Sequence record: PV808484.1
DNA from: a phage
Direction: 5' to 3' (one strand)
Length of the DNA: 64,000 nucleotides
Shown here: in pieces, positions 10,441 through 26,513 of the stretch
Position numbering within the stretch: the first letter of the stretch is position 1
Layout: each line of letters opens with the position of its first letter
Notes under the pieces: model-generated
Seen by the model: the letters and a program-made list of their open reading frames with translations, nothing else
Databases searched by the model: none
What the model was told of the DNA's origin: nothing
Translations under genes and position numbers: made by a program

Positions 10441-10454
10441 GTGAGGAATAAAGA

Positions 10455-10892: not shown

Positions 10893-10903
10893 AAGGGGTT
10901 AAA

Positions 10904-13635: not shown

Positions 13636-13854
13636 TATTTTGAAAATTTTTATTTTTATAAAAAGGGGTGTGGGTTTCATGTACGGAAATCCACCCTCTG
13701 AATAATATATCCAGAGTAAGTATTATTCTGTACTCTGTTAATAAATTATTTAATTTGTTTGTTGGATTATGATATCTGGTTTTTAAAAGGCATACTATCT
13801 CTTAACTACTACTTATAACAGAACAGTAAAATCATTTTTATAAAAAGGACAAAA

Positions 13855-14051: not shown

Positions 14052-14076
14052 TTTCGTGTTTTTATAGGTATGCGTA

Positions 14077-14190
14077 TGATAATCATTCTCATTTGTAAAT
14101 GAGAATCATTATCATTTAATTATGTAAGTGATAATCATTCTCAGTAAGAGAATGAGAATCATTAGCAAATGAGAATTTTCTCATTTAGAG
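14077..14190. promoter_or_regulatory. cluster of Fur-box-like palindromes
   Basis: TGATAATCATTCTCATT, AATGAGAATCATTATCATT, GTGATAATCATTCTCAG, AATGAGAATCATTAGC; compare Fur consensus GATAATGATAATCATTATC. Confidence 0.5.
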
Positions 14191-14447
14191 AATAACGCGT
14201 AGGGGTGGTGTTTGTCTCGCGCTCCCGTGTCCCCTCGCCATACAATAAGAATAGCATAACCAACAACAAAAGCAAGCGATTATTTTTATCTTTACATTTC
14301 TTTACAAATTTATTTTAGACGAGCTACCGGCGATCAACCTTCCAACCAGTGTGCCCTGGTATGTTAGCCCCGCCTTTACGCCGTGGGGGTGGCGCTTCCT
14401 CTTCTGTATGTAAAACAGTATAAGCCCGATCCCTGGGCTTGTCAAGA

Positions 14448-14714
14448 TTATTTTTTGTTTTCTTGCCAGGATAGGACACCTAACCAAAAATACATGTCGC
14501 CCCGCGCCCCTGGCGGGATCTTGCTTTCCCCGCCGCCACTGCAAGCCCATAGATAACCATTTGCGAACGTATCAAAATGATCTATTTCTTCCACCTTATG
14601 ATCGCCCAGGTTGAGAACGGTTTCAACCTTTAAGCCCGTTGCGCTTGCTACCTGGTGCACCGTGCCGCCTTGCCAGCCTAATGAGTGCATGAGGTGTAAA
14701 GTAGTATTTGTCAT
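14448..14714 (-). CDS. hypothetical protein (88 aa) in GC-rich segment
   Basis: internal ATG (MTNTTLHLMHSLGW...) in ORF-track frame; local GC roughly 50-60 percent versus 32-42 percent elsewhere; weak SD. Confidence 0.35.
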   Translation of the reverse strand: MTNTTLHLMHSLGWQGGTVHQVASATGLKVETVLNLGDHKVEEIDHFDTFANGYLWACSGGGESKIPPGARGDMYFWLGVLSWQENKK

Positions 14715-14824
14715 GGTATCGCCCTTTCTTTGATGTGCGCCCTGGTTGGCGCGGTAGAAAGATAATAGCCCCTTTCCTTTATAGATAGCAAGCAAAAAAG
14801 AAATGAAAAAAGATTAAAAAAGGG

Positions 14825-14853
14825 TTGACGTTCCTCACCTGGTAGCGTATTAT
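14825..14853 (+). promoter_or_regulatory. sigma70-like promoter
   Basis: TTGACG-17 nt-TATTAT. Confidence 0.45.
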
Positions 14854-14980
14854 TCATCTTGTCGAGGGGGGCGAGGCACAACGACAATAAACAAAAGGAG
14901 GGCGCAATGCAGGACGGGCAAAGGTGAGGATCTCCACAATCCACCGTCACAATAACATTACTTATAAAAGGTTGATAACG

Positions 14981-15076
14981 ATGATCAAGAAAGAAAACAG
15001 CTTGACGGTTGGAACGATTAACGCTATCATTTTCGCCGTTCCATTTTGGGTTGTAGTAGCGGTTATTATCTTTTAA
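14981..15076 (+). CDS. small hydrophobic peptide (31 aa), type I toxin-like
   Basis: MIKKENSLTVGTINAIIFAVPFWVVVAVIIF; about 120 nt leader containing a 6-codon mini-ORF (MQDGQR) with AAGGAGG SD. Confidence 0.35.
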   Translation: MIKKENSLTVGTINAIIFAVPFWVVVAVIIF

Positions 15077-15084
15077 AAATATTC

Positions 15085-15141
15085 TTGACAACGTTTTTTA
15101 ATCTGATAAGATGTATCACATAGGGCGGCAATAGTGCCGCT
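15085..15141 (+). promoter_or_regulatory. promoter plus 5'-UTR hairpin cassette
   Basis: TTGACA-16-TAAGAT then CATAGGGCGGCAATAGTGCCGCTCATA. Confidence 0.55.
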
Positions 15142-15164
15142 CATAACAGAAGAGAGAAATAATC

Positions 15165-15437
15165 ATGGCATCATATAGCGCATCAATGATCGTAATGGGT
15201 ATCACTGGTAAACCTATGCGCGGTGGCGGATCTTTCGCTAACATCAATATTGATGGACGTTTATCCCTGGACGCAGCGATCACAGTGGCACGGGAAACAT
15301 TTAAAAAAGAATGTAATTTCAATAAACAAGATTATCTCGGTTTCGCTATTGAAAAAACCGCGCGATTTGTGGATTATAAAAGCCCGAAAATGATCGACAC
15401 TACACTAAAAGCGAAAGATGTAGCGTTTTTGCTTTAA
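15165..15437 (+). CDS. hypothetical protein
   Basis: 90 aa ORF downstream of cassette. Confidence 0.55.
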   Translation: MASYSASMIVMGITGKPMRGGGSFANINIDGRLSLDAAITVARETFKKECNFNKQDYLGFAIEKTARFVDYKSPKMIDTTLKAKDVAFLL

Positions 15438-15440
15438 GAC

Positions 15441-15501
15441 TTGACACTGAAAAATAATTTGGTAATATATACCACATAAGGCGGGGAAATGGTTTCCCGC
15501 C
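15441..15501 (+). promoter_or_regulatory. promoter plus 5'-UTR hairpin cassette
   Basis: TTGACA...TAATAT then GGCGGGGAAATGGTTTCCCGCC. Confidence 0.55.
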
Positions 15502-15526
15502 AAGCCATCAAAGAAAGGGTAACACA

Positions 15527-15889
15527 ATGAGCAAGCAAATCAATACTATCATGTTAAACCTGGTATCTTTCCGCGATGACGTGAAAAATCTTTCGCGTGA
15601 TGCAGTGGATGCACGGATCGAAAGCTATCGCACACAGATCGCAACATTACCGTTAAAACGTGATCAACATGCCGCTAATATGATGCTTGATGCTATGATT
15701 AAAAAGATGATTCAATGTGATCTTACTCTGGCTTATGAATATGCTGGCGATCTTTTTGTAACATATAACAAGCCCGTTCCAGGTATGAGCACCACGGAAG
15801 AATTGCATGCCTTAAATCTGCGACAAGATGCATGGGATAACATGCGCCGTGTTATGGTATGGGTAGAAAGCGGTAAAATTTACGAATAA
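15527..15889 (+). CDS. hypothetical protein
   Basis: 120 aa ORF; AAAGGG SD. Confidence 0.55.
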   Translation: MSKQINTIMLNLVSFRDDVKNLSRDAVDARIESYRTQIATLPLKRDQHAANMMLDAMIKKMIQCDLTLAYEYAGDLFVTYNKPVPGMSTTEELHALNLRQDAWDNMRRVMVWVESGKIYE

Positions 15890-15895
15890 AAACGG

Positions 15896-15950
15896 TTGAC
15901 ATTGCACTAAAACCTGATAAGCTATCTTAAAGCGGGAATAGTTCCCGCTT
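15896..15950 (+). promoter_or_regulatory. promoter plus 5'-UTR hairpin cassette
   Basis: TTGACA then AAGCGGGAATAGTTCCCGCTT. Confidence 0.5.
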
Positions 15951-15967
15951 ACATAGGATAAAACTTT

Positions 15968-16114
15968 ATGAAACAATATGTAATGAGTATTCACACCAAA
16001 AACGGCGCTACTGTTACGACTCCGGCACGGTTTGCACTTGTAAACCGTTGCAAGAGACTAAAACGAGAGCTAAAAAACAACCGTGCAACGGGCTTTAAAC
16101 GCTGGGGAGGATAA
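15968..16114 (+). CDS. small basic protein (48 aa)
   Basis: hand-translated MKQYVMSIHTKNGATVTTPARFALVNRCKRLKRELKNNRATGFKRWGG; cassette upstream. Confidence 0.4.
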   Translation: MKQYVMSIHTKNGATVTTPARFALVNRCKRLKRELKNNRATGFKRWGG

Positions 16115-16116
16115 TC

Positions 16117-16389
16117 TTGTTTTTTCTAAAAGTTTTTGATAATGTGATCGCTTTTGAACATGCTGCAACGTTCAACCTGGCGAGATACGCTATCAGGTTT
16201 AAAGATAATGTTTATCCCCGTGCTGGTGGCGGTTACACTATCTTTAATCATCGTAACGCTCAATTAACGGATATAACGAATCCAGATCCTGGAGTGTATC
16301 GCATAGGTTGGCTACCGTCAAAAGACGCGGCAAGCATGTTTAAGGTGTGTAAACTACTAACAGAAGAGGCGAACGAACATGGGGCGTGA
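16117..16389 (+). CDS. hypothetical protein (probable TTG start)
   Basis: no in-frame ATG near 5' end; GGGGAGG SD 6 nt before TTG. Confidence 0.4.
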   Translation: MFFLKVFDNVIAFEHAATFNLARYAIRFKDNVYPRAGGGYTIFNHRNAQLTDITNPDPGVYRIGWLPSKDAASMFKVCKLLTEEANEHGA

Positions 16390-16933
16390 ATATGTGATCC
16401 AGTCCTGGGTAAAGCATGATGCTGATGATCCGCGCATAATACCAGATGACATGATCGATCACATGGTAGGGTATAGCGGGGAGCAGATAGGAAATCGAGC
16501 GGCAAAGAGCAACGGTCACACAAAAACGCGATCCGTTCGCCCTGGTTGGCTGGCAAATGGTAACGCTGACATTGCAAGCGCCGCAGATCCAAGCGATGAC
16601 GCTAAAAATAATCCCTTATACAGCATTGATCCGGCTTTTAAGGTGTTAGAAGAGTATCCCGCTAAATTAGCCGCACTAGATAAAGCATATGAAGAAAAGC
16701 GCATGGCATGGACGGTATACAACACCGCTAAAATGGTGCTAGATGCAAAATTGATTAAAGCCCAGGAGAAGATCAATAAACTTGTTACCATAGCGCAAGA
16801 GGAAGACCAGGACGACCAGGAGGAAGAGGAAGAAATCATGCCTACCCTGGAAGAGGAAGAGATCCAGCCATACATGCCGACGGAAGAGGAAAAAAGACAA
16901 GCCCTAAAAAATTATGAAAATTGTGTTGTGTAA
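16379..16933 (+). CDS. hypothetical protein with acidic C-terminus
   Basis: 184 aa; ATG overlaps upstream stop; EEDQDDQEEEEE tract. Confidence 0.5.
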   Translation: MGREYVIQSWVKHDADDPRIIPDDMIDHMVGYSGEQIGNRAAKSNGHTKTRSVRPGWLANGNADIASAADPSDDAKNNPLYSIDPAFKVLEEYPAKLAALDKAYEEKRMAWTVYNTAKMVLDAKLIKAQEKINKLVTIAQEEDQDDQEEEEEIMPTLEEEEIQPYMPTEEEKRQALKNYENCVV

Positions 16934-16936
16934 GGC

Positions 16937-17042
16937 TTGACATATGCAAACAAGCCCCGTAATATGTACCACATAAAGCGGGGCAACGCCCCATAAGGTG
17001 AAATAAAAAATCACTTGACACCTGAAATCAGTAAGCTATAAT
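16937..17042 (+). promoter_or_regulatory. tandem promoters, first with 5' hairpin
   Basis: TTGACA-17-TAATAT then AAGCGGGGCAACGCCCCAT; second TTGACA-16-TATAAT. Confidence 0.5.
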
Positions 17043-17079
17043 GCTTATATAGATTGAAACATTACTAAGGAATAAAAGC

Positions 17080-17259
17080 ATGGCTATTATTGCAAAGACT
17101 GAGATCGTAGGTTTAGATTCTATCATCCTGGCATATGAGGAAGCTATAGAAATGTATGTGGTTTCCTATGGTGATTATATCCGTGAATATAAATCTATTG
17201 ATCTAGCTTTTGAATGCTATATTCGCCAGGTCAATAAAGCCTATGATGATTATCGTTAA
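17080..17259 (+). CDS. small protein (59 aa)
   Basis: hand-translated MAIIAKTEIVGLDSIILAYEEAIEMYVVSYGDYIREYKSIDLAFECYIRQVNKAYDDYR. Confidence 0.4.
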   Translation: MAIIAKTEIVGLDSIILAYEEAIEMYVVSYGDYIREYKSIDLAFECYIRQVNKAYDDYR

Positions 17260-17354
17260 AAGTTTTAGTCTTGTGCTATTGACAACGAACGATAGTGCAA
17301 GCATAATAACTTTTATCGGGAATACTCCTAACTAATCAAAAGAGATTAAAGACT

Positions 17355-17720
17355 ATGGCTAAAAATATCAATGTTTCTGCTTATGCTACCCTGGCTAACA
17401 CTGCTAAAATTGAACTATCCAGCATTGAAGCGGTACATATTAGCGCCCGTCGCTGGTTTCAAAAGTCTTATGGTAACACTTATTTCTCTTTGATGGTTGA
17501 CGTTGAGATCGGCGGTAAACTGATTGAAGTCGTTAACGTTCCGTTTCACTATGGCTACGGGGATCATTTTGATACCGTTGCCCTAGAAGAGTTTAGCAAG
17601 GTTATCAACCTGGAAGGTAAAGAATTTTCAAATTATGCCTACCTTTCCCGTTTTTGCCGTGATAATGGGATCGCTGTATACAGTCATGCAAGCGATGTTA
17701 AACGTAAAAAAGATTTATAA
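17355..17720 (+). CDS. hypothetical protein
   Basis: 121 aa ORF; TTGACA-type promoter about 17280. Confidence 0.55.
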   Translation: MAKNINVSAYATLANTAKIELSSIEAVHISARRWFQKSYGNTYFSLMVDVEIGGKLIEVVNVPFHYGYGDHFDTVALEEFSKVINLEGKEFSNYAYLSRFCRDNGIAVYSHASDVKRKKDL

Positions 17721-17726
17721 AAAGCA

Positions 17727-17754
17727 TTGACAGCACGAATAAAAAGCGTAAAAT
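17727..17754 (+). promoter_or_regulatory. sigma70-like promoter with no ORF directly downstream
   Basis: TTGACA-16-TAAAAT; followed by about 85 nt structured noncoding sequence. Confidence 0.4.
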
Positions 17755-17840
17755 GTTTCATATCAGGACGGGGAACGAAGTAACACCCCGTTAAGTAGCC
17801 CAGGAGTAAGACACACGAAAAACTCCCCTGATAAAATAGT

Positions 17841-17901
17841 TTGACAATGGTTTCTAATAACGTATAATACTTACATCGAGAGCGGGAACACTTCCCGCCT
17901 C
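17841..17901 (+). promoter_or_regulatory. promoter plus 5'-UTR hairpin cassette
   Basis: TTGACA-16-TATAAT then AGCGGGAACACTTCCCGCC. Confidence 0.55.
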
Positions 17902-17923
17902 ACTGAAAAAAGAGATTAACATC

Positions 17924-18163
17924 ATGGCTAAATCTAAAATGTTCTTAGGTCACAAAAACAAAACTCATTGGAATGTAAGCCTTTGGATCAACAACGATGA
18001 AGGTTTTTATAATCTTGCGCGTGAATTTATCGCAGCTAACACCAATAAGAATGACGCAGCGCGTGATATGATGTTATTTCTTGAAAGTATGGATCAAGAT
18101 AAAACGCCAGACGGATTCAAGTTCAGTAAAACCGCGATCCGTGCCGCTATGGTTGGAATGTAA
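17924..18163 (+). CDS. hypothetical protein
   Basis: 79 aa ORF. Confidence 0.55.
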   Translation: MAKSKMFLGHKNKTHWNVSLWINNDEGFYNLAREFIAANTNKNDAARDMMLFLESMDQDKTPDGFKFSKTAIRAAMVGM

Positions 18164-18258
18164 AGGAGACATAAAAATGAAACATCGTTCGACCTATCTC
18201 ACAAAACGTTTTAGCTTAGATCATAAATTGGGCTATTACGGAAGAAATAGAAAATAAT

Positions 18259-18318
18259 TTGACAACGTTTTAAATTAGTGTAAGATATATCACATAGGGC
18301 GGGAAATGGTTTCCCGCC
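18259..18318 (+). promoter_or_regulatory. promoter plus 5'-UTR hairpin cassette
   Basis: TTGACAACGTTTT...TAAGAT then GGGCGGGAAATGGTTTCCCGCC. Confidence 0.55.
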
Positions 18319-18340
18319 AAATCAAAGAAAGGTTATCATT

Positions 18341-18568
18341 ATGGCTATCATTATTGTTCGCGTATCCGGTACGGTTGGAAGCTCCCAGGTAGTAGCAGTT
18401 ATCACAGAGAAGAAAGGGGATGATCTTCACTCTTCCTTGAATAGTTGGGCGGTCGCTAATTTTGGTCAGTGGTCGAGCGTCGAGTATATCGAATCCTACC
18501 AGGTGCCGACGATTAGCCTAACCGATTTAAATGTTGATCGCTTGTTGTGCCTGGATGGATTAAACTAA
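18341..18568 (+). CDS. hypothetical protein
   Basis: 75 aa ORF. Confidence 0.55.
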   Translation: MAIIIVRVSGTVGSSQVVAVITEKKGDDLHSSLNSWAVANFGQWSSVEYIESYQVPTISLTDLNVDRLLCLDGLN

Positions 18569-18576
18569 AAATAATC

Positions 18577-18633
18577 TTGACAAGATAACTAAAATCAGTA
18601 AAATGTAATGCATAGGGCGGCAATAGTGCCGCT
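18577..18633 (+). promoter_or_regulatory. promoter plus 5'-UTR hairpin cassette
   Basis: TTGACA-16-TAAAAT then CATAGGGCGGCAATAGTGCCGCTCATA. Confidence 0.55.
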
Positions 18634-18655
18634 CATAGTAAGAGAGATTATCAAA

Positions 18656-18871
18656 ATGGCTAATATCCGCACACTGTTAAAAAATGCAAGTCAAGTTTTA
18701 TTTTCAGATGACGAGTATTTCAACAAAGACATTACAGGCGTGAAAAATTTAAAAGACGTGAAGGATGTTATCGGTATCCGTGGATCTTTACGTAAAGGTG
18801 ACATATACGGTAACAAGGTGCAATATAAACTGTCAAAAGATTATGATTTTACTTTGACAATTATCAATTAA
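18656..18871 (+). CDS. hypothetical protein
   Basis: start at internal ATG (MANIRT) downstream of cassette. Confidence 0.5.
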   Translation: MANIRTLLKNASQVLFSDDEYFNKDITGVKNLKDVKDVIGIRGSLRKGDIYGNKVQYKLSKDYDFTLTIIN

Positions 18872-18882
18872 GGGATCACAAA

Positions 18883-19041
18883 ATGAAAACTTGCCAATGT
18901 GGTAAAAAGTCTATCTCTGGTTTAAAACGTGGCGTTGCTCTTTGTCAATATCACTATAACGCTCAAACGTGGGGTAAGCAGTGGGCGGATCAGATGGAAG
19001 AGGCAAAGAAAGAAAATATAAAAGTAGTTGCAAAGAAATAA
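18883..19041 (+). CDS. small Cys-containing protein (52 aa)
   Basis: hand-translated MKTCQCGKKSISGLKRGVALCQYHYNAQTWGKQWADQMEEAKKENIKVVAKK. Confidence 0.4.
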   Translation: MKTCQCGKKSISGLKRGVALCQYHYNAQTWGKQWADQMEEAKKENIKVVAKK

Positions 19042-19112
19042 AAATAAAGTAAACTGTATTCATCAAGGCGGTGGAATAGCCCACCGCCTAACAAAGAGAA
19101 GAGGAAAACATC

Positions 19113-19283
19113 ATGATCACTTTCGCTACCCGTGAAGCCGCTCGCAACGTTGCACGTAAAGTTAACGCCGCCAACCTGGGCGCTACGTTTAAAGCCCCGG
19201 TGAAAGATGAGTCAGGAAAATGGATCTTCCCTGGTCTGCGTCACGCTGATAAGCTGGGAACATTAACGTTAAAAAATAAATAA
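19113..19283 (+). CDS. small protein (56 aa)
   Basis: hand-translated MITFATREAARNVARKV...; preceded by hairpin GGCGGTGGAATAGCCCACCGCC. Confidence 0.4.
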   Translation: MITFATREAARNVARKVNAANLGATFKAPVKDESGKWIFPGLRHADKLGTLTLKNK

Positions 19284-19290
19284 GATCCGC

Positions 19291-19349
19291 TTGACAGTAG
19301 CATGATTTATAAGTAAAGTAACAACAACGGCGGGAAATGGTTTCCCGCC
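19291..19349 (+). promoter_or_regulatory. promoter plus 5'-UTR hairpin cassette
   Basis: TTGACA-17-TAAAGT then GGCGGGAAATGGTTTCCCGCC. Confidence 0.55.
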
Positions 19350-19369
19350 ATCAATAAAGAGATAAGATT

Positions 19370-19729
19370 ATGAAATCAGTAAAAGCAATCAAAACTTACA
19401 TTGTATCGGCTATTTCTTTTGAAGGTACTACAACCGAAAAAGAAAAAATCACCGAACTGATGCGCCGTTTTAATTCTGAATACTGGTATCCCGATAATCA
19501 AAAACGTTACAATTATAACGTGATCAAGGCGATAGCCTCATGGTTACAAGGTTTACCGTCAGACATTAACATCGCCTTTGATTATAACGAGATCGATCAC
19601 TTGTTAATTGAATGGAAGTACATAAAAGAAACAAGCAAAGAAACAACCGTTACCCGTGAGCGGGAAAATTATTGGTTATATATTGCAAGCATGATCGTAA
19701 TCCTGGCAAAACAGCATAACGTGGCGTAA
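19370..19729 (+). CDS. hypothetical protein
   Basis: 119 aa ORF. Confidence 0.55.
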   Translation: MKSVKAIKTYIVSAISFEGTTTEKEKITELMRRFNSEYWYPDNQKRYNYNVIKAIASWLQGLPSDINIAFDYNEIDHLLIEWKYIKETSKETTVTRERENYWLYIASMIVILAKQHNVA

Positions 19730-19743
19730 TTAAGAGGAAGAAA

Positions 19744-19881
19744 CATGAACGCATCACAGCAGATCGAAAAATTCAACCGCAGCAAGGCGCGTAAAGATTG
19801 GAACGAAGAGATCACCAAAAAAGGCGACAAGCGGAACAAAACAAAAAGAGATCGCAGCACAAAAAGACACTGGAACGAATA
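19744..19881 (+). CDS. small basic protein (45 aa)
   Basis: hand-translated MNASQQIEKFNRSKARKDWNEEITKKGDKRNKTKRDRSTKRHWNE; terminator follows. Confidence 0.35.
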
Positions 19882-19887
19882 ACAAAA

Positions 19888-19910
19888 AAGGGCGCAATAA
19901 GCGCCCTTTT
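19888..19910 (+). terminator. rho-independent terminator
   Basis: AGGGCGC-AATAA-GCGCCCT then TTTTA. Confidence 0.6.
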
Positions 19911-20000
19911 AGCTTATATAGAGGCTTGTTACCCATAGGCAATGGTAACGCCAGGGCAAGCCTATAAACAACGTTAGACGGCTTTACAGGAGCTTTAAAA

Positions 20001-20183
20001 ATGAGATTAGAAGAAATAAGCAAGGCACTAGCCCAGGGGCAAAGGTTATGCGCCAGATATCGTGATCAATATGGCTTCATAACTAGCGGCGTGATCCTGG
20101 GGATTGAAGGCAATAAGATTTTTATTGACACGTTGAAAAACGTTGTATATAGTGACAATATAATCTCAATAAAACATATATGA
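20001..20183 (+). CDS. hypothetical protein
   Basis: 60 aa ORF. Confidence 0.45.
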   Translation: MRLEEISKALAQGQRLCARYRDQYGFITSGVILGIEGNKIFIDTLKNVVYSDNIISIKHI

Positions 20184-20593
20184 GGCAAGAAATGAAAAAC
20201 TTATTGATCGCTGGTTTACTCTCTTTTGGTATGGTTGGAACATCTAGCGCGGCGATATCCTCCACAGTAGCAGAATTAAGCGCCGTTGATGCAATGGAAA
20301 ACGTCATGCTTATTAATAATGCGATCCCCGATGAAATCATGGAGGATTCACACATGATCGCTTATGGTGCTGTTACACAACTAACGGCAAAAATAGATAA
20401 ATCTATTGTTAATGGCTTAAATGAAGATGTACCATGTGAAATTATTACCAGTGTGCTTACTACTCAAAATTTTACGCCGTGGTTAAAAAGTATTCAAAAA
20501 GTACACAGTACAGCCGCAGATCGTAGCAATGAAAAACTAGTGTCAGCACTTGCAACGTATACCCTAGCAAAATGCACCGAGATAAAAGATTGA
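20180..20593 (+). CDS. predicted secreted protein
   Basis: N-terminal KNLLIAGLLSFGMVGTSSA signal-peptide-like segment. Confidence 0.5.
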   Translation: MRQEMKNLLIAGLLSFGMVGTSSAAISSTVAELSAVDAMENVMLINNAIPDEIMEDSHMIAYGAVTQLTAKIDKSIVNGLNEDVPCEIITSVLTTQNFTPWLKSIQKVHSTAADRSNEKLVSALATYTLAKCTEIKD

Positions 20594-20616
20594 CAACATA
20601 GAAAGCACGTTATAAG
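20590..20616 (+). promoter_or_regulatory. sigma70-like promoter
   Basis: TTGACA-15-TATAAG, then AAGGAG SD. Confidence 0.45.
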
Positions 20617-20640
20617 ATACACACAACAAAGGAGAACTAC

Positions 20641-20943
20641 ATGAACGGCATAGCTAAAACGTTTTTTCTTTTTTCTGGTGTAAATGATCCATCAATAAAA
20701 GTCGATAGTGTAAAAGAAAACAATACTATCACCGCTAAATTGTTTCAAGATGAAACAAATAACGTGCTAATCATTAATCTTAAAGAAATAACTAAAGGTT
20801 ATTATACTATTGCTTACCATGCAATCTATCATGCTGGTACTAGTGAGGAAGTGCAAACAAGCAACAACGAAAGCGCGGCGCTACCTGGTGATCTGGTGCT
20901 GGGCGTTATCAGTTTAATTGTCAATGATTTTTTTAAGGAGTAA
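20641..20943 (+). CDS. hypothetical protein
   Basis: 100 aa ORF. Confidence 0.55.
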   Translation: MNGIAKTFFLFSGVNDPSIKVDSVKENNTITAKLFQDETNNVLIINLKEITKGYYTIAYHAIYHAGTSEEVQTSNNESAALPGDLVLGVISLIVNDFFKE

Positions 20944-20947
20944 AACC

Positions 20948-21043
20948 ATGCCCTATTTACATTTATTTTTCGGTATCTTATTGACAGGATCTTTTTTCTT
21001 CTGTATGCTTGTTTCTATTGTAAACCACGTTTTAAGACATTAA
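20948..21043 (+). CDS. small hydrophobic peptide (31 aa)
   Basis: MPYLHLFFGILLTGSFFFCMLVSIVNHVLRH. Confidence 0.3.
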   Translation: MPYLHLFFGILLTGSFFFCMLVSIVNHVLRH

Positions 21044-21052
21044 GGAAACAGC

Positions 21053-21172
21053 ATGAAAATTATTCCCGTACAATATAGCGTAATAAATCCAGCATACGAG
21101 GAAGGAAGGAAAACAAGCATGGCTTTATGTTGTATTGCTACTATAGCCATGTTGTTATGCATTGTGTTTTAA
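21053..21172 (+). CDS. small hydrophobic peptide (39 aa)
   Basis: MKIIPVQYSVINPAYEEGRKTSMALCCIATIAMLLCIVF. Confidence 0.3.
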   Translation: MKIIPVQYSVINPAYEEGRKTSMALCCIATIAMLLCIVF

Positions 21173-21272
21173 TAGGTTTTATAGTTGTACGCTTTAAAGG
21201 CTTGACAATTTTTTGTTATGCTTTAAACTATATCTTGAAAACGGCAAAGGCCGCAAACAAAAGGGTAAAATT

Positions 21273-21596
21273 ATGAAATCTGTGATCGGTGTTTATTTGG
21301 ATAACTCTGATTTTTTCTATCATCGCGCTCGTTTCCTTGATGCGATTGAAATGATAGAATCAGGCTTTAAAGAGTATCGCCTTGCACATGATGACCTGGA
21401 AGCATTACAGGGCAATAGTGTTTTTACATTGCAAGCTAAAGCACTATGCAAAAGCCGGATCGACATTGCGAGCAAAAAGATAGAACGCGGCATGTCCTGG
21501 TTGCGCACCGCAGAAATCAACATGGGGCAATGGTACGGCGAAAACTTAGAAAATAAACATGCTTTTGTCAATGTAGAAAATATTGAAGATTATTGA
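21273..21596 (+). CDS. hypothetical protein
   Basis: start at internal ATG (MKSVIG) after AAAGGG SD. Confidence 0.5.
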   Translation: MKSVIGVYLDNSDFFYHRARFLDAIEMIESGFKEYRLAHDDLEALQGNSVFTLQAKALCKSRIDIASKKIERGMSWLRTAEINMGQWYGENLENKHAFVNVENIEDY

Positions 21597-21658
21597 TTGA
21601 CAGCACACCTAACGGGTAGTATATTGTATCTCATAGAGCGGGGAAATGGTTTCCCCGC
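21597..21658 (+). promoter_or_regulatory. promoter plus 5'-UTR hairpin cassette
   Basis: TTGACA-17-TATATT then GCGGGGAAATGGTTTCCCCGC. Confidence 0.55.
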
Positions 21659-21678
21659 CATCAATAAAGAGATAAGCT

Positions 21679-21963
21679 ATGAAGATCACAAAAGCACTTT
21701 CCAACTATGCAGCACGTCGCGGATTATGTTTAACCGTTGAAAATTTAGGGAAAGAAGATTTTTTGTGCTTTTGGGAGCTTGAGAATGATAATGAGTGGAT
21801 CTTCTCTTATTCTATCTGCGAAGATCAAAACGGTTGTTTATTAACCTGGCGCGGTAATATCTATCTACCGGAAGAAATCAAAGAAGAATTACCAGGCACG
21901 ATCATGACTGAGAAACAGCTTAAGGAAGTGATCAATTTTGTAGGGCAAAACATTAAAAAATAA
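21679..21963 (+). CDS. hypothetical protein
   Basis: 94 aa ORF. Confidence 0.55.
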   Translation: MKITKALSNYAARRGLCLTVENLGKEDFLCFWELENDNEWIFSYSICEDQNGCLLTWRGNIYLPEEIKEELPGTIMTEKQLKEVINFVGQNIKK

Positions 21964-21964
21964 T

Positions 21965-22022
21965 TTGACAGCAGAAAAACAACGTAGTAAAGTTTATCAC
22001 ATAGGGCGGCAATAGTGCCGCT
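21965..22022 (+). promoter_or_regulatory. promoter plus 5'-UTR hairpin cassette
   Basis: TTGACA-17-TAAAGT then CATAGGGCGGCAATAGTGCCGCTCATA. Confidence 0.55.
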
Positions 22023-22044
22023 CATAACAGAAGAGAAACAAATC

Positions 22045-22215
22045 ATGATCCCGACTATGTTTTATGTATCGCGCAAAGGTCACAATATTTTTTGGTCTGA
22101 AGATTTAAATGAAGCCATGACGTTTGCCCGTGATCGTGTTGCTATCGGTGGCGTTAACATTACTGTAACCGATGAAAATGGCATTGAATACTATAACGGC
22201 GACGATGAAGAGTAA
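22045..22215 (+). CDS. small protein (56 aa)
   Basis: start at ATG (MIPTMF) downstream of cassette. Confidence 0.45.
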   Translation: MIPTMFYVSRKGHNIFWSEDLNEAMTFARDRVAIGGVNITVTDENGIEYYNGDDEE

Positions 22216-22260
22216 TTAACAAGGCGGGGAGTATTCCCGCCGTCAATAAAGGATAATATC

Positions 22261-22398
22261 ATGAAAACTTTCAACGCAACAGCATCAACAATTGGTTATA
22301 TTATCACCGTGCAAGCTATTGATCTAGTAGCTGCAACAAACAAGATTAAAAACATGATCCCTGTAGGCAGTGATTTTTCCGTTTGGGAAGTAAAATAA
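22261..22398 (+). CDS. small protein (45 aa)
   Basis: MKTFNATASTIGYIITVQAIDLVAATNKIKNMIPVGSDFSVWEVK; hairpin GGCGGGGAGTATTCCCGCC upstream. Confidence 0.35.
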   Translation: MKTFNATASTIGYIITVQAIDLVAATNKIKNMIPVGSDFSVWEVK

Positions 22399-22401
22399 AT
22401 C

Positions 22402-22463
22402 TTGACAGTGATTTGTTATTTGATAAGATGTACTACGTAGGGCGTGGCAATAAGGCAACGCCC
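22402..22463 (+). promoter_or_regulatory. promoter plus 5'-UTR hairpin cassette
   Basis: TTGACA-17-TAAGAT then GGGCGTGGCAATAAGGCAACGCCC. Confidence 0.5.
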
Positions 22464-22484
22464 CACATCAGAAAGGGAAAGATT

Positions 22485-22721
22485 ATGACTATAGCAACAG
22501 TATTAACCGCCGTTAAAACCGCCGAATCATCCGGCTTGCATGTTGAGATTATAGATCAACCAGGTGGCGATCTCCTTGTCCAGGTTTACCCGCCGAAAGT
22601 AGGGGATGATTATTATTGGTGCTATTCTGATACGTTCGAACAAGTAGACACGAAAGCGATCACGGCTTTTATTTTAAAAGCTATTGAAGAAAATAACTTT
22701 CATTATAACATCAATCAATAA
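22485..22721 (+). CDS. hypothetical protein
   Basis: start at internal ATG (MTIATV) after AAAGGG SD. Confidence 0.5.
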   Translation: MTIATVLTAVKTAESSGLHVEIIDQPGGDLLVQVYPPKVGDDYYWCYSDTFEQVDTKAITAFILKAIEENNFHYNINQ

Positions 22722-22763
22722 ACCATAAGCGGGGCAGTAACGCCCACTAATGAGGGTAAAATC

Positions 22764-22868
22764 ATGTTAGAGAAAATTTTCACGGTTGTAGTAGTGGGCC
22801 TGGCGTTATCGGTTGGAGTGGTTGCAACTATGGCTAACATGATTCTATCTTCTCACGGTATTGGATAA
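22764..22868 (+). CDS. small hydrophobic peptide (34 aa)
   Basis: MLEKIFTVVVVGLALSVGVVATMANMILSSHGIG. Confidence 0.3.
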   Translation: MLEKIFTVVVVGLALSVGVVATMANMILSSHGIG

Positions 22869-22878
22869 GGTGAATCAA

Positions 22879-23094
22879 ATGATCACGAATAAGACAGGTA
22901 AAACAGAATTTTTACGCGGCTTGCAAATAGGTAAACCTGAGATCTGGCATTGCACTAAATCCGCGCATAATGAAATGAAAGATTTTACCGCTACTTTACA
23001 ACGTGTTAAAATATCTATCACACAGAAAAAAGCCTTGTTAGTAGTAGAAAACGAGATCCCGCAAACTATTATTATTGTCGAGCGTACAGCATGA
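22879..23094 (+). CDS. hypothetical protein
   Basis: ATG (MITNKTG) with AAGGTG SD. Confidence 0.5.
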   Translation: MITNKTGKTEFLRGLQIGKPEIWHCTKSAHNEMKDFTATLQRVKISITQKKALLVVENEIPQTIIIVERTA

Positions 23095-23477
23095 AAACAG
23101 AAATCATTATTGAAATCATCAACGGTTATAAAGAAGCCTTTATTTTTGCTGAATCCGCCAGGGATCATGAAGGTAATTTTATTGATAACTTGACTGATTA
23201 TGATTTTTCAGATCAAGCCCATCAGCGGATCATTCATGACGTAGCGGCTTATTGTGATGCCAATGATGCCGCTATCTCTGAGGCAATGAGCGACGGCGCA
23301 ACAGCCAACCAGATCGGGAATGATTTACATTTTACCCGTAATAGTCACGGCGTAGGCTTTTGGGATCGCCCTGAAATATACACTACTAACACCGCCAACC
23401 GCTTAACTAATGCAGCTAAATTGATGCCATCGGTGCATGCTTACATTGGTGAAGATAATTTGATTTATATTGAATAA
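23091..23477 (+). CDS. hypothetical protein
   Basis: 128 aa ORF; ATGA overlap. Confidence 0.55.
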   Translation: MKTEIIIEIINGYKEAFIFAESARDHEGNFIDNLTDYDFSDQAHQRIIHDVAAYCDANDAAISEAMSDGATANQIGNDLHFTRNSHGVGFWDRPEIYTTNTANRLTNAAKLMPSVHAYIGEDNLIYIE

Positions 23478-23483
23478 AAAGTA

Positions 23484-23542
23484 TTGACACCGATCCCCAA
23501 TATGGTACTATTTACCACGTAGGCGGGAAATGGTTTCCCGCC
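23484..23542 (+). promoter_or_regulatory. promoter plus 5'-UTR hairpin cassette
   Basis: TTGACA then GGCGGGAAATGGTTTCCCGCC. Confidence 0.55.
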
Positions 23543-23565
23543 AGGTAATCAAAAAGGTAAATACT

Positions 23566-23955
23566 ATGCGCAACCTGGTTTCTGTTTCTAACGTTGAAAA
23601 ATTTCAATCTTTACAGGGTATCGTTAACAACGTAGCGCCTTTTTTAGTCAACGGCTTGATTGCAAAGATGAAAAATAAACATCATGCGGCATGGTCTGCT
23701 TACTGCTTTGATAATGATGAAAAAGCGGCTGAAATGATGTTAAATATGCTGTTAGACAGTGTAGAATCATCTTTACCGGAAAACATCGCAGAAGAGATCA
23801 CCTATCGTTATAATATGGCGATCACTTACCAGGAGGTTGCGCAATTTAATATGATGGACGATGACGAACAACAGGATCAGGAAATTTTCTGGGAGTATGC
23901 AGATCGTCAATCGGCTTTTGATGAAAAGTTAGCGATGTATTATAACGAATATTAA
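23566..23955 (+). CDS. hypothetical protein
   Basis: start at internal ATG (MRNLVS). Confidence 0.5.
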   Translation: MRNLVSVSNVEKFQSLQGIVNNVAPFLVNGLIAKMKNKHHAAWSAYCFDNDEKAAEMMLNMLLDSVESSLPENIAEEITYRYNMAITYQEVAQFNMMDDDEQQDQEIFWEYADRQSAFDEKLAMYYNEY

Positions 23956-23970
23956 TACACGGTAAAAGAA

Positions 23971-23997
23971 AGGGGCGCACTAAGCGCCCTTTTTTGT
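23971..23997 (+). terminator. rho-independent terminator
   Basis: GGGCGC-ACTAA-GCGCCC then TTTTTTG. Confidence 0.7.
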
Positions 23998-24341
23998 ATT
24001 CTTTTTTCACAATGGAAGCGACACGTAAAGAATAGGCGTAAAAGGTGGCGTAAAACCATCTAAAACCGACTGTAACCGCTTAAACAAGGCAGGGATGATT
24101 AATCCCCTTACCAGGATGAAAAAGCTGTTAGAGAGCTATTCATAGCGTTTAAAGCACATAGGAAATAATTTGCTTTTTATCTTGCCTTTTATCCTGCTTT
24201 TGATTATTATTATGGAACGGGCGGCACCTGGGGACAGGGGAAGATAATCACCGGAAGATCCCGCTATATATTGATAGCTAATACCTATTAAACAACAAAA
24301 CATCAAAGGGATAAACTATCAAATCTTTACAATCCTACCTA

Positions 24342-24400
24342 TTGACACACGATCACCCTTATACTAATATGTATCCCGTAGGCGGGAAATGGTTTCCCGC
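24342..24400 (+). promoter_or_regulatory. promoter plus 5'-UTR hairpin cassette
   Basis: TTGACA-17-TAATAT then GGCGGGAAATGGTTTCCCGC. Confidence 0.55.
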
Positions 24401-24419
24401 TTGATATAGGAATCATACC

Positions 24420-24650
24420 ATGATCGAACAAATTAAAAGCACTCAAAATGTTAACGGCAATGTGTTCCACTTTATCGGCAATAAAGGAAAAGGCGTACCC
24501 TACGCCGCCGTAACCGTGCAACCTAATGGCGATTATTGGTTTACCGTGTACGGATCATACTCTTTCGGACGCCCGGCACATGATAAGATCTTGCAAGCGG
24601 TTAAACCTGCGGGGAAGAATATTACAGCAGAAAAATTTTATAAAAAATAG
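24420..24650 (+). CDS. hypothetical protein
   Basis: 76 aa ORF. Confidence 0.55.
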   Translation: MIEQIKSTQNVNGNVFHFIGNKGKGVPYAAVTVQPNGDYWFTVYGSYSFGRPAHDKILQAVKPAGKNITAEKFYKK

Positions 24651-24725
24651 CTTGCTTTATTTCTTCTGTTAACTTATAGTTATCGCGTAGGGCAAACAAT
24701 TTTAAACGGTAGACGAGGAATCACC

Positions 24726-25109
24726 ATGAGCAATATCATCAACCTGGCAGCGACTGTAAACGGTAAAGACTTTAACGGCGCTGTAGACCGTGATCCTATG
24801 TGGTGCTTATCAGTGTTTAAAGGCGATCTGGTTGAAGTTAGAACAACCGAAGGGTATAGCGATGATTATAAATGCGAGATCCATTTACATAACTGGTACA
24901 CGGGGAAAACTTATGCGCTGAATCACGCGTTTATCGGGAAAATTGAATATCGCGAGATGATCGACGATGAAACGGGGCAAGATTTTAGTGATTATGTTTA
25001 TATTCGTTCAGAAACATTAGCCGAACGTTTGATCGAGAAAATGAAAGCAAAAAATAAAATTAATTTAGCTCATTGGCTTGATATAACAAATGATCCGGCT
25101 TACAAGTAA
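24726..25109 (+). CDS. hypothetical protein
   Basis: 127 aa ORF; GAGG SD. Confidence 0.55.
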   Translation: MSNIINLAATVNGKDFNGAVDRDPMWCLSVFKGDLVEVRTTEGYSDDYKCEIHLHNWYTGKTYALNHAFIGKIEYREMIDDETGQDFSDYVYIRSETLAERLIEKMKAKNKINLAHWLDITNDPAYK

Positions 25110-25124
25110 ATAACATTTCATACC

Positions 25125-25150
25125 AGGGCGCACAAAGCGCCCTTTCTTTT
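25125..25150 (+). terminator. rho-independent terminator
   Basis: AGGGCGC-ACAAA-GCGCCCT then TTCTTTTT. Confidence 0.65.
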
Positions 25151-25357
25151 TACCTAAATAAAGATGATAGCTTTTACCTATCAAAAACATTCACCGAAAA
25201 AAGTGAATAGATCGCGGTATCGAGCTAATCAAGGAGCAGATGAACAACCATACCATGAAGATCATAAGGCGCTTACAACGTGTTTTAAACCGCTTATTTT
25301 TAATTTCTCCATGTAACTATCTGGCAAAAACAGCCTTTTTCGTGTCTTTCCTCTTAA

Positions 25358-25430
25358 GTGATAATCATTCTTATTTATAGCTGATTATTTATGCAATAAA
25401 CTGCATAATGCAATAATGATAATCATTCTT
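25358..25430. promoter_or_regulatory. Fur-box-like palindromes
   Basis: GTGATAATCATTCTTA and AATAATGATAATCATTCTT; the latter 16/19 to Fur consensus. Confidence 0.5.
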
Positions 25431-25440
25431 AACTTATGAC

Positions 25441-25790
25441 CATCTAACCTATAAAATAATAAGTTATCTAACTAAATTAAAGCTAATTATTTCACCTTTA
25501 TTTATAACTTACTGTTACTATCTCATTGATAACCTTATATTAAACAACAATAACTAATATAAATCATTACTAAGCTAAATATAATCTATCTAACCTTTAA
25601 AACTATAACTATAATCTATCGAATTGTTGCACAAAGTAACTATTAAATTGTTAGTAACATTACTAAATAATTCATATCCTATCTATTTATGATCTAATCT
25701 TTACTTTCCTATCTATTACCTAAATAATCCTATCATACAGTTACCATTTCATGTAATAATCATTTCATACAATAACTATAACAAGAAATA
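25441..25790. repeat. G-depleted AT-rich low-complexity tract
   Basis: about 4 percent G on plus strand; degenerate ATCTATC / CTAACCT motifs. Confidence 0.55.
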
Positions 25791-25808
25791 TAATTCGCAA
25801 GCGTATCA

Positions 25809-25982
25809 TTAGCAGCCTATGCCGGACACATAGGCGGCTAATAATAACGCAACTACACACCCCACATAATAACCATCACCGATAGTTATTATTTGTGCTT
25901 ATGTAGCTTGCAACAATTGCAAGCGCAACAATATACATGGTATATTGTATCCCTTACATTGTTGCGGTGCGTTATTATTAGC
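25809..25982. repeat. nested inverted repeats (structured noncoding element)
   Basis: hairpin TTAGCAGCCTATG-CCGGACA-CATAGGCGGCTAA; palindrome GCTTGCAA-CAA-TTGCAAGC; 14-bp inverted pair GCTAATAATAACGC / GCGTTATTATTAGC. Confidence 0.5.
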
Positions 25983-26296
25983 TAATGTTTGGAACATTGG
26001 CTATAATATAAGCTAAATAATAAGCTATTCAATAATAAACATAATGAATAATGACACTGATGATCATAATGCGCCACCTTCCAGGGGGCGCTATGTGAAC
26101 ACAAAGAAATCTTTCTTGTCAAGAAAAATATTAACACTATTGCGCAAAATTATTTATGTCTGAATAGATGATTTTTCATACTATTGTTATTATTTATCGG
26201 CCCTAACTATTGCCTATTTGTTGAGCCTACTTTCTTAAAAGCGCAATAAATCAGAATTATCTTGATTTTTAGGGTGTTTTATAGTATAGAAAATAT

Positions 26297-26317
26297 GCAA
26301 ATGATAATCATTATCAG
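26297..26317. promoter_or_regulatory. Fur-box-like site (near consensus)
   Basis: GCAAATGATAATCATTATCAG; 16 contiguous matches to Fur consensus. Confidence 0.55.
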
Positions 26318-26481
26318 CTATCTTCCACGGGTGGCACTATTTCACGCAGGATCATTTCATTTGGCAAGGTGTATATAGATGTTTAGACTTGCCAAGCCAT
26401 TGATTTACTTAGAATTTATCTGTTTTGTTGTGAGTAGTACCTTTCTTGCTCAGAAAATAATCAAAAGTCTTATAAGTCATT

Positions 26482-26513
26482 GAATGATAATGCAAATGAT
26501 AATTATTCTCATT
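26482..26513. promoter_or_regulatory. Fur-box-like site
   Basis: GAATGATAATGCAAATGATAATTATTCTCATT. Confidence 0.45.

Follow-up and report, generated by a model that had tools for sequence, protein, structure and literature searches.

Fur-box palindromes in end-proximal noncoding DNA of a phi92-like coliphage and their likeness to the T5 injection-stop region

Fur boxes are the textbook operators of bacterial iron genes. In the Enterobacteriaceae, the Fur operators of fepA-fes, fepD-entS, fepB-entC and fhuA share the 7-1-7 inverted repeat TGATAATnATTATCA within the 19-bp consensus GATAATGATAATCATTATC. On temperate phages, Fur regulates cargo genes, such as stx1 of the Shiga-toxin phages. The sitABCD operon of lambdoid coliphages is also Fur-regulated cargo and places Fur boxes on phage DNA (PMC6969025). 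Crystal structures of Fur bound to DNA indicate that the conserved G and one or two T's are the only bases read, that the AT-rich narrow minor groove is also recognized, and that the remaining positions are variable (PMC4506495). In phage T5, the injection-stop region contains the DRE/DRC/pal repeat and palindrome elements (Davison, bioRxiv 10.1101/866236), and the mechanism of the stop was still called poorly understood in 2026 (PMC13250531).

The DNA analyzed here, a stretch of 64,000 nucleotides of record PV808484.1 (the window), belongs to a phi92-like myovirus (Justusliebigvirus), a virulent phage with E. coli as its host. We found nine palindromes split over three noncoding tracts, which total 2,518 nt with 32% G+C and are rich in repeats. 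Cluster A (14077-14190, four or five sites) sits between the convergent homologs of gp223 (plus strand) and gp224 (minus strand), B1 and B2 stand behind the terminator of the last "island" gene, and C1 and C2 lie in the terminal repeat. In phi92, a 343-bp direct terminal repeat represents the physical genome ends; in the Schickermooser record, the first 300+ bases, up to ~329 bp, recur at the record end. The features are as follows, with the strand given where one applies.

13834-14054, plus strand: three iteron-like direct repeats of 67-75 bp, directly upstream of cluster A
14077-14091: palindrome A1, TGATAATCATTCTCA, 1 mismatch in 14 specified positions; kept in alia, phi92 and IMG/VR relatives
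14100-14114: palindrome A2, TGAGAATCATTATCA, 1 mismatch; 19-mer at 14095-14113 matches 16/19
14129-14143: palindrome A3, TGATAATCATTCTCA, 1 mismatch
14153-14167: palindrome A4, TGAGAATCATTAGCA, 2 mismatches; 19-mer at 14148-14166 matches 16/19
14167-14186: palindrome A5, AAATGAGAA-TT-TTCTCATTT, the same half-site in a perfect 9-2-9 palindrome, with spacing one base shorter than in 7-1-7
14195-14420: GC-rich noncoding element of ~230 nt, directly downstream of cluster A and part of its conserved module
14973-14987: weak extra match, TGATAACGATGATCA, 2 mismatches, between island promoters; at chance level and of doubtful membership
25359-25373: palindrome B1, TGATAATCATTCTTA, 2 mismatches, 216 bp past the terminator of the gp248 homolog; not part of the original prediction
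25417-25431: palindrome B2, TGATAATCATTCTTA, 2 mismatches; 19-mer at 25412-25430 matches 16/19
26224-26566, plus strand: equivalent of the 343-bp direct terminal repeat of phi92, with AGC following the boundary at both edges
26302-26316: palindrome C1, TGATAATCATTATCA, a perfect 15/15 match to the 7-1-7 motif
26497-26511: palindrome C2, TGATAATTATTCTCA, 1 mismatch

Within the terminal repeat, C1 corresponds to phi92 positions 79-93, 78 bp from the left edge, and C2 to positions 274-288, 55 bp from the right edge. The Schickermooser site aligned to B1 reads TGATAACCATTATCA. A5 keeps a fixed distance to the conserved downstream element, and relatives hold a full 21-bp palindrome at its position; its own non-Fur spacing counts against a Fur reading.

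Eight of the sites fit the Fur 7-1-7 motif with 0-2 mismatches, and the ninth is a related palindrome. The general form of the phage sites is AAATGA(T/G)AAT-N-ATT(A/C)TCATTT. In an identical consensus scan they showed 0-2 mismatches to the 15-mer and 2-4 to the 19-mer, compared with 1-3 and 3-5 for the native ent-fep and fhuA operators; the phage sites thus equal or beat the fepA, entS, entC and fhuA operators of E. coli. Among 76 unique phage sites, AA precedes TGA on the 5' side in 77-96%, in agreement with the Fur 19-mer. G2, A3 and the AAT-n-ATT core are retained in 85-100%, but these core columns had been pre-selected by the filter of at most 2 mismatches, and the flanking AA is the only independent evidence from the column analysis. 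The single tolerated core variation is T/G at one position, and the G variant (ATTCTC on the opposite strand) is also a half-site of the native fhuA and fepB-entC operators, which likewise have several sites per locus. The phage palindromes combine enrichment over chance with an AT-rich core that carries the G/C and T positions read by Fur. On sequence grounds, the label of Fur box is well supported.

The original prediction had reported a match to the Fur consensus at 16 contiguous positions at 26297, and the 19-mer at 26297-26315, GCAAATGATAATCATTATC, which overlaps C1, indeed matches 17/19 with 16 contiguous. Every other site that it cited (14098-14117, 25412-25430 and 26482-26513) was present on rescanning. 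Its five inverted hexamers in 14077-14190 also exist; however, they are spaced 18-29 bp from one another in a tandem row, without the overlap that had been claimed. Its identification of the motif as a Fur box is borne out by scores at least equal to those of native operators, by the fitting AA flanks and by the constancy of the motif across unrelated phage families with nothing but their hosts in common. The location of two sites inside the direct terminal repeat and the recurrence of these palindromes in the T5 injection-stop region lay outside the original prediction.

The core GAKAATCATTMTY gave 15 strand-hits in the window, where 1.3 would be expected. Over the 2,518 nt of noncoding DNA, we observed 8 sites with at most 2 mismatches (0.09-0.36 expected) and 5 with at most 1 (0.007-0.04 expected), where the expectations come from Markov models of order 1-3 trained on those same tracts. 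The enrichment over these local-composition models is more than 20-fold, and the maximum in 2,000 simulations was 4 sites with at most 2 mismatches. A whole 148-kb relative has 11 sites with at most 2 mismatches (2.2 expected), 8 of them in the same three tracts, and 5 with at most 1 (0.07 expected). As a positive control, 22 kb of the E. coli K-12 ent-fep cluster were scanned identically. Three of the four 15-mer matches (at most 3 mismatches) and four of the five 19-mer matches fell in the fepA-fes, fepD-entS and fepB-entC intergenic regions, where the matches had 1-3 mismatches; the remaining matches were a 15-mer between entF and fepE and a 19-mer within fepG. In the same scan, 3 mismatches were counted in the fhuA operator. 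The palindromes of the noncoding tracts are therefore real by scan, enrichment and control, as originally proposed. Tracts of 32% G+C laden with repeats might produce such palindromes by chance, but even the order-3 model trained on the tracts falls far below the 8 observed sites, none of the 2,000 simulations exceeded 4, and the sites are kept in relatives with flanks of 50-70% identity. They persist despite diverged flanks in relatives from Phapecoctavirus and in those of Klebsiella, Salmonella and Erwinia. By these statistics and this conservation the chance explanation is refuted, and we consider it extremely improbable.

The same palindrome family forms the repeat cluster of the injection-stop region in 38 of the 38 T5-like loci examined. 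On the one hand, the two phage groups are alike in several respects. In the DRE/DRC/pal cluster of T5 and its relatives, 3-6 sites of the same 21-bp palindrome family form an array, the T5 cluster and cluster A each occupy a large noncoding gap between convergent genes, and sites are found near terminal-repeat boundaries too. A distance of 6.5-8% of the genome length separates the T5 cluster from one physical end; cluster A is 11.5-11.6 kb (7.8%) from the right end of phi92, which would match the boundary of the first-entering ~8% of the genome if that end enters first, and the distance is ~9% in a Phapecoctavirus (Mt1B1_P17). On the other hand, the T5 cluster lies within a 10-kb repeat, whereas the myovirus repeat has 343 bp. 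The T5 cluster adjoins paired DnaA boxes and nine GTCGGATTTGCACA repeats, whereas the neighboring elements of the myovirus differ; DnaA boxes (TTWTNCACA) number 9 in the window against 10.9 expected, with 0 in the noncoding tracts. T5 also requires its A1 and A2 (not the palindromes of those names) for the second transfer step, whereas the myovirus has no homologs of them; a tblastn search with 11 T5 pre-early proteins, including the DNA-binding A2, against the 148-kb relative and the window returned nothing below E = 0.1. Judged by sequence, the likeness between T5 and the myovirus holds at the motif level only. It is conceivable, but in our view very improbable, that the palindromes are the host-factor-binding core of T5-type stop signals with an rV5/phi92-like equivalent ~8-9% from one end, and that DNA delivery, or an end-dependent step right after it, would proceed in stages, gated by Fur and the iron status of the host.

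The palindrome is constant across Demerecviridae, Vequintavirinae and Stephanstirmvirinae infecting Escherichia, Salmonella, Klebsiella and Erwinia, and the direct repeats adjoining it are lineage-specific; in relatives, three repeats of unrelated sequence occupy the same place upstream of cluster A. This pattern fits a shared host protein rather than a co-evolving phage protein. Across genera, the sites keep the same places with respect to the repeat edges, the terminator and the conserved element, and the terminal repeats of three lineages have sites at 77-105 and ~256-275 bp. The ~230-nt element is near-invariant across Stephanstirmvirinae and Vequintavirinae. In six lineages, the spacing of the final cluster A palindrome to an invariant nAGAAT, and to the point where this element starts, does not change; nAGAAT is a -10-like hexamer with A2 and T6. 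Within the genus, extra conservation of the sites over the surrounding noncoding DNA was not measurable (variable columns 3/80 vs 41/732 and 3/60 vs 129/1615). The deepest relatives, PVP-SE1 and an Erwinia phage, have a single site, GAGAAT-C-ATTCTC, two symmetric steps off the Fur consensus, and a binder with a slightly different preference is therefore possible. It is doubtful, but worth weighing, that a phage-encoded protein (a replication initiator, small terminase subunit or early regulator) binds the palindromes and that their likeness to Fur boxes is incidental. The modules do resemble origin or packaging DNA in their iteron-like repeats, conserved 230-nt element and terminal-repeat edges, and the GAGAAT in place of GATAAT in the deepest branches and the different spacing of A5 would agree with such a binder. 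Against this, the same 21-bp palindrome is shared by T5-like siphoviruses and rV5/phi92-like myoviruses, the 11 T5 pre-early proteins tested, A2 among them, lack a homolog in the myovirus, and one site is a perfect Fur consensus. Moreover, the neighboring repeats, as probable targets of phage proteins, differ wholly between the lineages, whereas the palindrome does not.

Native operators overlap the -35/-10 of iron-related genes, whereas no overlap with a regulated promoter was found at the phage sites, and no iron-related genes flank them. No sigma-70 match of at least 10/12 overlaps any palindrome; there are only 9/12 matches, formed by the boxes themselves. The three strong tandem island promoters at 14825, 15002 and 15085 have no strong box. 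These results, together with the location between convergent genes, behind a terminator and inside the terminal repeat, give no support to the proposed iron-responsive control of neighboring phage genes. The suggestion of a Fur-controlled noncoding RNA likewise found no support: two alignments contained no conserved -35/-10, and the conserved element beside cluster A had no Rfam match and no fold signal on either strand (z -0.33 and +0.35). Classical operators, at which Fur-Fe2+ would repress unannotated promoters for a noncoding RNA or for the early transcripts that leave the terminal repeat first, are in our opinion unlikely. The fixed distance of the last cluster A palindrome from the -10-like nAGAAT and the conserved element would suit them, as would the -10-like appearance of the Fur hexamers themselves and the location of the terminal-repeat sites 300-500 bp upstream of the next ORF. 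However, in addition to the missing sigma-70 matches, conserved -35, fold and Rfam signals and the box-free island promoters, the conserved TCTTGAT of the terminal repeat is not paired with a conserved -10, and the T5 cluster likewise lies between convergent genes.

The original prediction also proposed titration of Fur, which is possible in terms of numbers. In such a decoy, replicating phage DNA would titrate Fur and derepress the iron-uptake regulon of the host, and phage metabolism would thereby be provided with iron. Since the terminal repeat is present twice, each virion genome has ~10 strong sites. A cell contains ~5,000-10,000 Fur molecules, of which a few hundred genome copies could occupy a considerable fraction. 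However, fixed positions would be unnecessary in a decoy, and yet those of the sites are kept across genera; iron-related genes are absent beside the sites. T5 destroys host DNA early (PMC13250531), which makes host derepression pointless there. We consider the decoy improbable.

The motif, statistics, placement and conservation that we observed, including the presence of these palindromes in the injection-stop region of T5, could best be explained if host Fur is recruited to end-proximal noncoding DNA as an architectural or roadblock factor, with the palindromes as conserved protein-binding sites and not operators of neighboring genes; we hold this reading with nearly even confidence. We infer Fur, as opposed to another protein, as the binder, and likewise the effect of its binding. 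Abundant iron-loaded Fur dimers, already in the cell, would occupy the palindromes on DNA arrival and, once bound, would serve the phage in an architectural or roadblock role on this DNA. The effect may be to shield the end DNA from read-through transcription or H-NS spreading, or to organize the DNA ends for entry, replication or cutting, and these steps would then be tied to host iron status. As analogies only, an IHF site in lambda cosB brings a host factor into phage DNA-end processing, and a Fur-box array upstream of ftnA displaces H-NS. The phage sites may resemble both in recruiting a DNA-binding protein already present in the host to act as an architectural element outside any promoter core, and the terminal-repeat sites lie 55-80 bp from the terminase cut sites. 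Bending, terminase assistance and H-NS competition would be candidate functions only for the phage sites. It counts against our preferred explanation that reliance on an iron-dependent architectural factor would be odd in a virulent phage, and we know of no direct precedent in virulent phages. To our knowledge, Fur has never been described in such an architectural or end-processing phage role, and no link between Fur and these phages was found in the literature searched. The Fur-regulated cargo of temperate phages differs in that it has ordinary promoter operators of prophage-expressed accessory genes, whereas this phage is virulent and its sites have no gene attached.

In summary, conserved promoter-less Fur boxes in a virulent phage would be a new viral use of a host regulator. 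The mechanism of the T5 injection stop has been open for more than 50 years, and a link to Fur makes it cheaply testable. If Fur binds, infection by two large groups of therapeutic-candidate coliphages may hinge on host iron status beyond receptor expression.

The studied region shares 95-98% identity with genomes of Justusliebigvirus (EmilieFrey, alia and phi92; Stephanstirmvirinae), a group of large virulent myoviruses of E. coli. Its small-gene island is the counterpart of phi92 gp225-gp248, with about 24 small + strand ORFs of unassigned function, and is flanked by two non-coding tracts, A and B. Tract A holds, in this order, three direct repeats, five palindromes, a GC-rich element and a terminator-like hairpin. 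The gp223 homolog at 13084-13635 contains a NADAR domain (Pfam E = 2.5e-36), and relatives annotate it as a YbiA-like N-glycosidase. Pfam and PHROGs searches on 10 flanking ORFs returned only this NADAR domain, a gp30.8-like protein and families of unknown function, with no iron-related gene among these neighbours. Searches with 13600-16600 and 25100-27300 also returned genomes deposited as Campylobacter, Serratia and Salmonella phages that are 89-97% identical to this coliphage; records labelled Pseudomonas or Acinetobacter gave partial matches only, at lower identity. The Campylobacter labels above all seem to reflect a mislabelled host or a contaminant isolate.

Features of the two tracts and their surroundings
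13084-13635, + strand, gp223 homolog, directly upstream of tract A
13636-14447, tract A, non-coding, between convergent genes
13834-14054, three 67-75-bp direct repeats, tract A
14077-14186, five palindromes (cluster A), tract A
14195-14420, GC-rich element of ~230 nt, tract A
14422-14440, - strand, terminator-like hairpin; a T-run follows on the + strand too
14448-14717, - strand, gp224 homolog, on the other side of tract A, convergent with the gp223 homolog
14825-15112, + strand, tandem sigma-70-like promoters TTGACG-17-TATTAT, TTGACG-17-TATCAT and TTGACA-16-TAAGAT with TG extension
25110-26815, tract B, non-coding
25125-25143, terminator of the gp248 homolog, start of tract B
25389-25408, palindrome TTATGCA-N6-TGCATAA, between sites B1 and B2, kept in Schickermooser
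25800-25990, structured palindromic element, tract B, multi-branch, 16-bp closing stem (GCUAAUAAUAACGCAA...) around three hairpins
26224-26566, equivalent of the phi92 direct terminal repeat, 343 bp, AGC following the boundary at both edges

Every site listed in the original prediction of Fur boxes was found in the sequence. Against the 7-1-7 Fur motif TGATAATnATTATCA, the mismatches in cluster A number one at 14077, 14100 and 14129 and two at 14153; those in tract B number two at 25359 (B1, absent from the earlier list) and 25417 (B2), none at 26302 (C1) and one at 26497 (C2). The longer 19-mer consensus is matched at 17 of 19 positions by 26297-26315. The fifth palindrome of cluster A, A5 (14167-14186), is a perfect 9-2-9 palindrome with the half-site of its neighbours, one base short of the Fur spacing. 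Markov models of order 1-3, with the 2.5 kb of the tracts themselves as training sequence, predict only 0.09-0.36 sites with at most two mismatches against the eight observed, so the enrichment is not due to AT-richness. A complete 148-kb relative has 11 such sites versus 2.2 expected; eight lie in the corresponding tracts, and the remaining three are consistent with chance. As an explanation of the tract sites, chance is very improbable. We applied the identical consensus scan to 22 kb of the E. coli K-12 enterobactin cluster as a control. Three of its four 15-mer hits (at most three mismatches) fell in the fepA-fes, fepD-entS and fepB-entC promoter regions, with 1-3 mismatches, and the fhuA operator showed three. 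Fur regulation of all these genes is established. From this like-for-like scan, the phage sites at least equal validated operators in consensus match.

Within the genus, divergence is too low for a footprint to be visible at the sites; an apparent signal in tract B (p = 9e-6) was a gap-column artefact that disappeared with substitutions only. In deeper relatives, the sites persist while their flanks diverge. Two to four of the tract A palindromes are kept in phAPEC8, Klebsiella phage KP13-26 and two IMG/VR lineages, and two Vequintavirinae, Salmonella phage PVP-SE1 and an Erwinia phage, each have a single perfect AATGAGAATCATTCTCATT at the same spacing to the GC-rich element. B1 and B2, located 216 and 274 bp past the gp248-homolog terminator, have aligned counterparts in Schickermooser, a Phapecoctavirus. 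They are followed by about 400 bp of DNA of 30% G+C with short repeats. The structured element at 25800-25990 (RNA fold energy -64.3 kcal/mol; z = -5.2 versus shuffles) is also kept in Schickermooser; in the window it lies about 230-420 bp upstream of the terminal-repeat edge.

The GC-rich element hardly changes between E. coli phi92-like phages, Salmonella PVP-SE1 and the Erwinia phage: its mean column identity is 75%, versus 36-58% for the flanking protein. Within it lie two direct repeats of CTTTACA, 10 bp apart, and a hairpin at about 14343-14368 whose pairing is kept via compensatory changes in alignment folding; it has no conserved ORF. The element is probably a DNA-level cis element, perhaps an origin or a packaging site. 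An IMG/VR search with its invariant 15-mer gave 48 matches, five of them real and most by chance; the protein-anchored IMG/VR searches covered five loci each. Three iteron-like direct repeats lie upstream of the palindromes in all of the deeper relatives named above for tract A, with unrelated sequences. Such turnover at a fixed place is as would be expected of binding sites for a co-evolving phage protein.

The sigma-70 scan found no convincing promoter overlapping any site, only 9/12 matches created by the boxes themselves, as GATAAT resembles a -10 element. The highest promoter scores (10-11/12) belong to a tandem trio on the + strand (14825, 15002 and 15085), none with a strong box; they probably drive the small-gene island, and the arrangement recalls tandem early promoters of other virulent phages. 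The motif nAGAAT is conserved at a fixed distance after the last tract A palindrome in six lineages, without a conserved -35 partner, and TCTTGAT of the terminal repeat has no conserved -10 partner. Iron-responsive control of neighbouring genes by the boxes finds no support in the promoter arrangement. The suggested Fur-controlled noncoding RNA fared no better: the GC-rich element has no Rfam match and no fold signal on either strand (z = -0.33 and +0.35). Rfam returned nothing at gathering thresholds across the window and sub-threshold noise only at E<=10 in both tracts, and a tRNA search found none. An ncRNA adjoining cluster A was dropped as the main explanation, the single-sequence folds of 14196-14460 showing no signal on either strand. 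From this promoter context and the GC-rich element results, we conclude that the sites do not serve annotated genes as classical operators. They may act at an unannotated promoter, though nothing supports such a role, and we regard classical repression of such promoters or of an ncRNA as distinctly unlikely.

Position 26224 corresponds to phi92 position 1, and the annotated 343-bp direct terminal repeat of phi92 ends at 26566; on this correspondence, the window traverses a concatemer junction. C1 (26302-26316; phi92 79-93) lies 78 bp inside the left edge of the repeat and C2 (26497-26511; phi92 274-288) 55 bp inside its right edge. Since both are inside the direct terminal repeat, they are present at both virion ends. 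Schickermooser, in whose record the first 300+ bases, up to ~329 bp, recur at the end, has terminal-repeat sites at 77 and 256, and a Klebsiella phage at 105 and ~275. Within the repeat, four lineages share the blocks TCTTGAT, TGCCAA-N2-ATTGAT and GAAAATCGCGTTAAGCAC unchanged. We also noted that ATGCAAAT, related to TTATGCA-N6-TGCATAA, stands before the Fur core at 26295 and 26490, as it does in phAPEC8 and T5; KP13-26 has TGCAAAT instead. A Salmonella phage record carries an attL/attR annotation that hinted at physical ends close to the module, but this seems to be a label placed automatically where the assembly overlaps.

BLAST with cluster A alone matched 368 phage records, T5-like phages being numerous among them. 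The T5 match (AATGATAATGAGAATCAATCTCATTT, AAATGATAATGATTCTCATTT and so on; positions 1480-1670 of locus L019, the reverse complement of T5 8108-11209) falls within what is annotated as the 'injection stop signal' in the left terminal repeat. Its repeats are the DRE, DRC and pal elements treated by Davison, whose analysis placed the first-step-transfer shear point inside DRE2 and discussed DnaA, not Fur (bioRxiv 10.1101/866236). Judged by sequence, the DRE/DRC/pal repeats are Fur-box-type palindromes. In the injection-stop region, Fur-type sites (at most two mismatches to the 15-mer) are present in nearly all of 38 T5-like loci, most often 3-5 at each. Where a T5-like genome has complete ends, its first site is ~300-510 bp from the right physical end or right terminal-repeat edge. 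T5 (AY543070) also has a perfect TGATAATCATTATCA at 233-247, 233 bp from the left end and inside dmp, where it encodes DNDYQ; this 15-mer is perfect in 34 of 37 T5-like loci (L079-L116, position ~10612), which coding constraint may explain. The T5 cluster lies between the convergent genes T5.017 and T5.018, just as cluster A lies between the gp223 and gp224 homologs. It lies 9.56-9.71 kb (7.9%) in from the left end; in phi92 the cluster lies 11.5-11.6 kb (7.8%) in from the right end. This coincidence is weak because the values spread, with ~9% for another Phapecoctavirus and a range of 6.5-8% among T5-like phages. The likeness between T5 and the myovirus is at the motif level; tracts A and B have no DnaA boxes as in T5, and no homologs of A1, A2 or other T5 pre-early proteins were found in the myovirus.

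Considering the binder, 76 unique phage sites have AA next to the selected 15-mer at a frequency of 77-96%, which agrees with the Fur 19-mer, and these flanking bases played no part in choosing the sites. The core tolerates variation, T/G, at only one position; the native operators of fhuA and fepB-entC also contain its mirror form, ATTCTC. In Fur-DNA structures, base readout covers one conserved G and one or two T's, an AT-rich minor groove is recognised as well, and the rest is free to vary (PMC4506495). The palindrome is invariant in three unrelated phage taxa whose only common ground is enterobacterial hosts, with lineage-specific repeats adjoining it. Because of the operator-grade sites, the AA flanks, the ATTCTC variant, the structural readout and the cross-taxon invariance, Fur is probably the selected binder. 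Counting against Fur are the GAGAAT form kept by the deepest relatives and the odd spacing of A5. A phage protein with the same specificity is an unlikely binder. Fur binds its consensus at nanomolar affinity, and for this reason in-vitro binding to the perfect site is predicted with near certainty.

Because the positions are promoter-less, end-proximal and in a convergent gap, the best-supported model, held tentatively at close to an even chance, is that phage DNA would recruit Fur-Fe2+ already present in the cell, which would act on non-coding control DNA as an architectural factor or a roadblock. Analogies are the IHF site in lambda cosB, close to where terminase cuts, and an array of Fur boxes upstream of ftnA that opposes H-NS. 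A Fur decoy, in which the same sites would titrate the host protein, is improbable. On temperate phages, Fur boxes are already known to serve cargo genes as operators, the sit operon being one example (PMC6969025). The palindromes of this phage belong to a familiar kind of site but stand in a new context. Our literature searches found no paper tying Fur to T5-like or phi92/rV5-like phages, or to the T5 injection stop signal, which a 2026 paper described as repeats, palindromes and DnaA boxes whose mechanism was still unknown (PMC13250531). The interest of these sites comes mainly from this testable link to the T5 injection stop signal.
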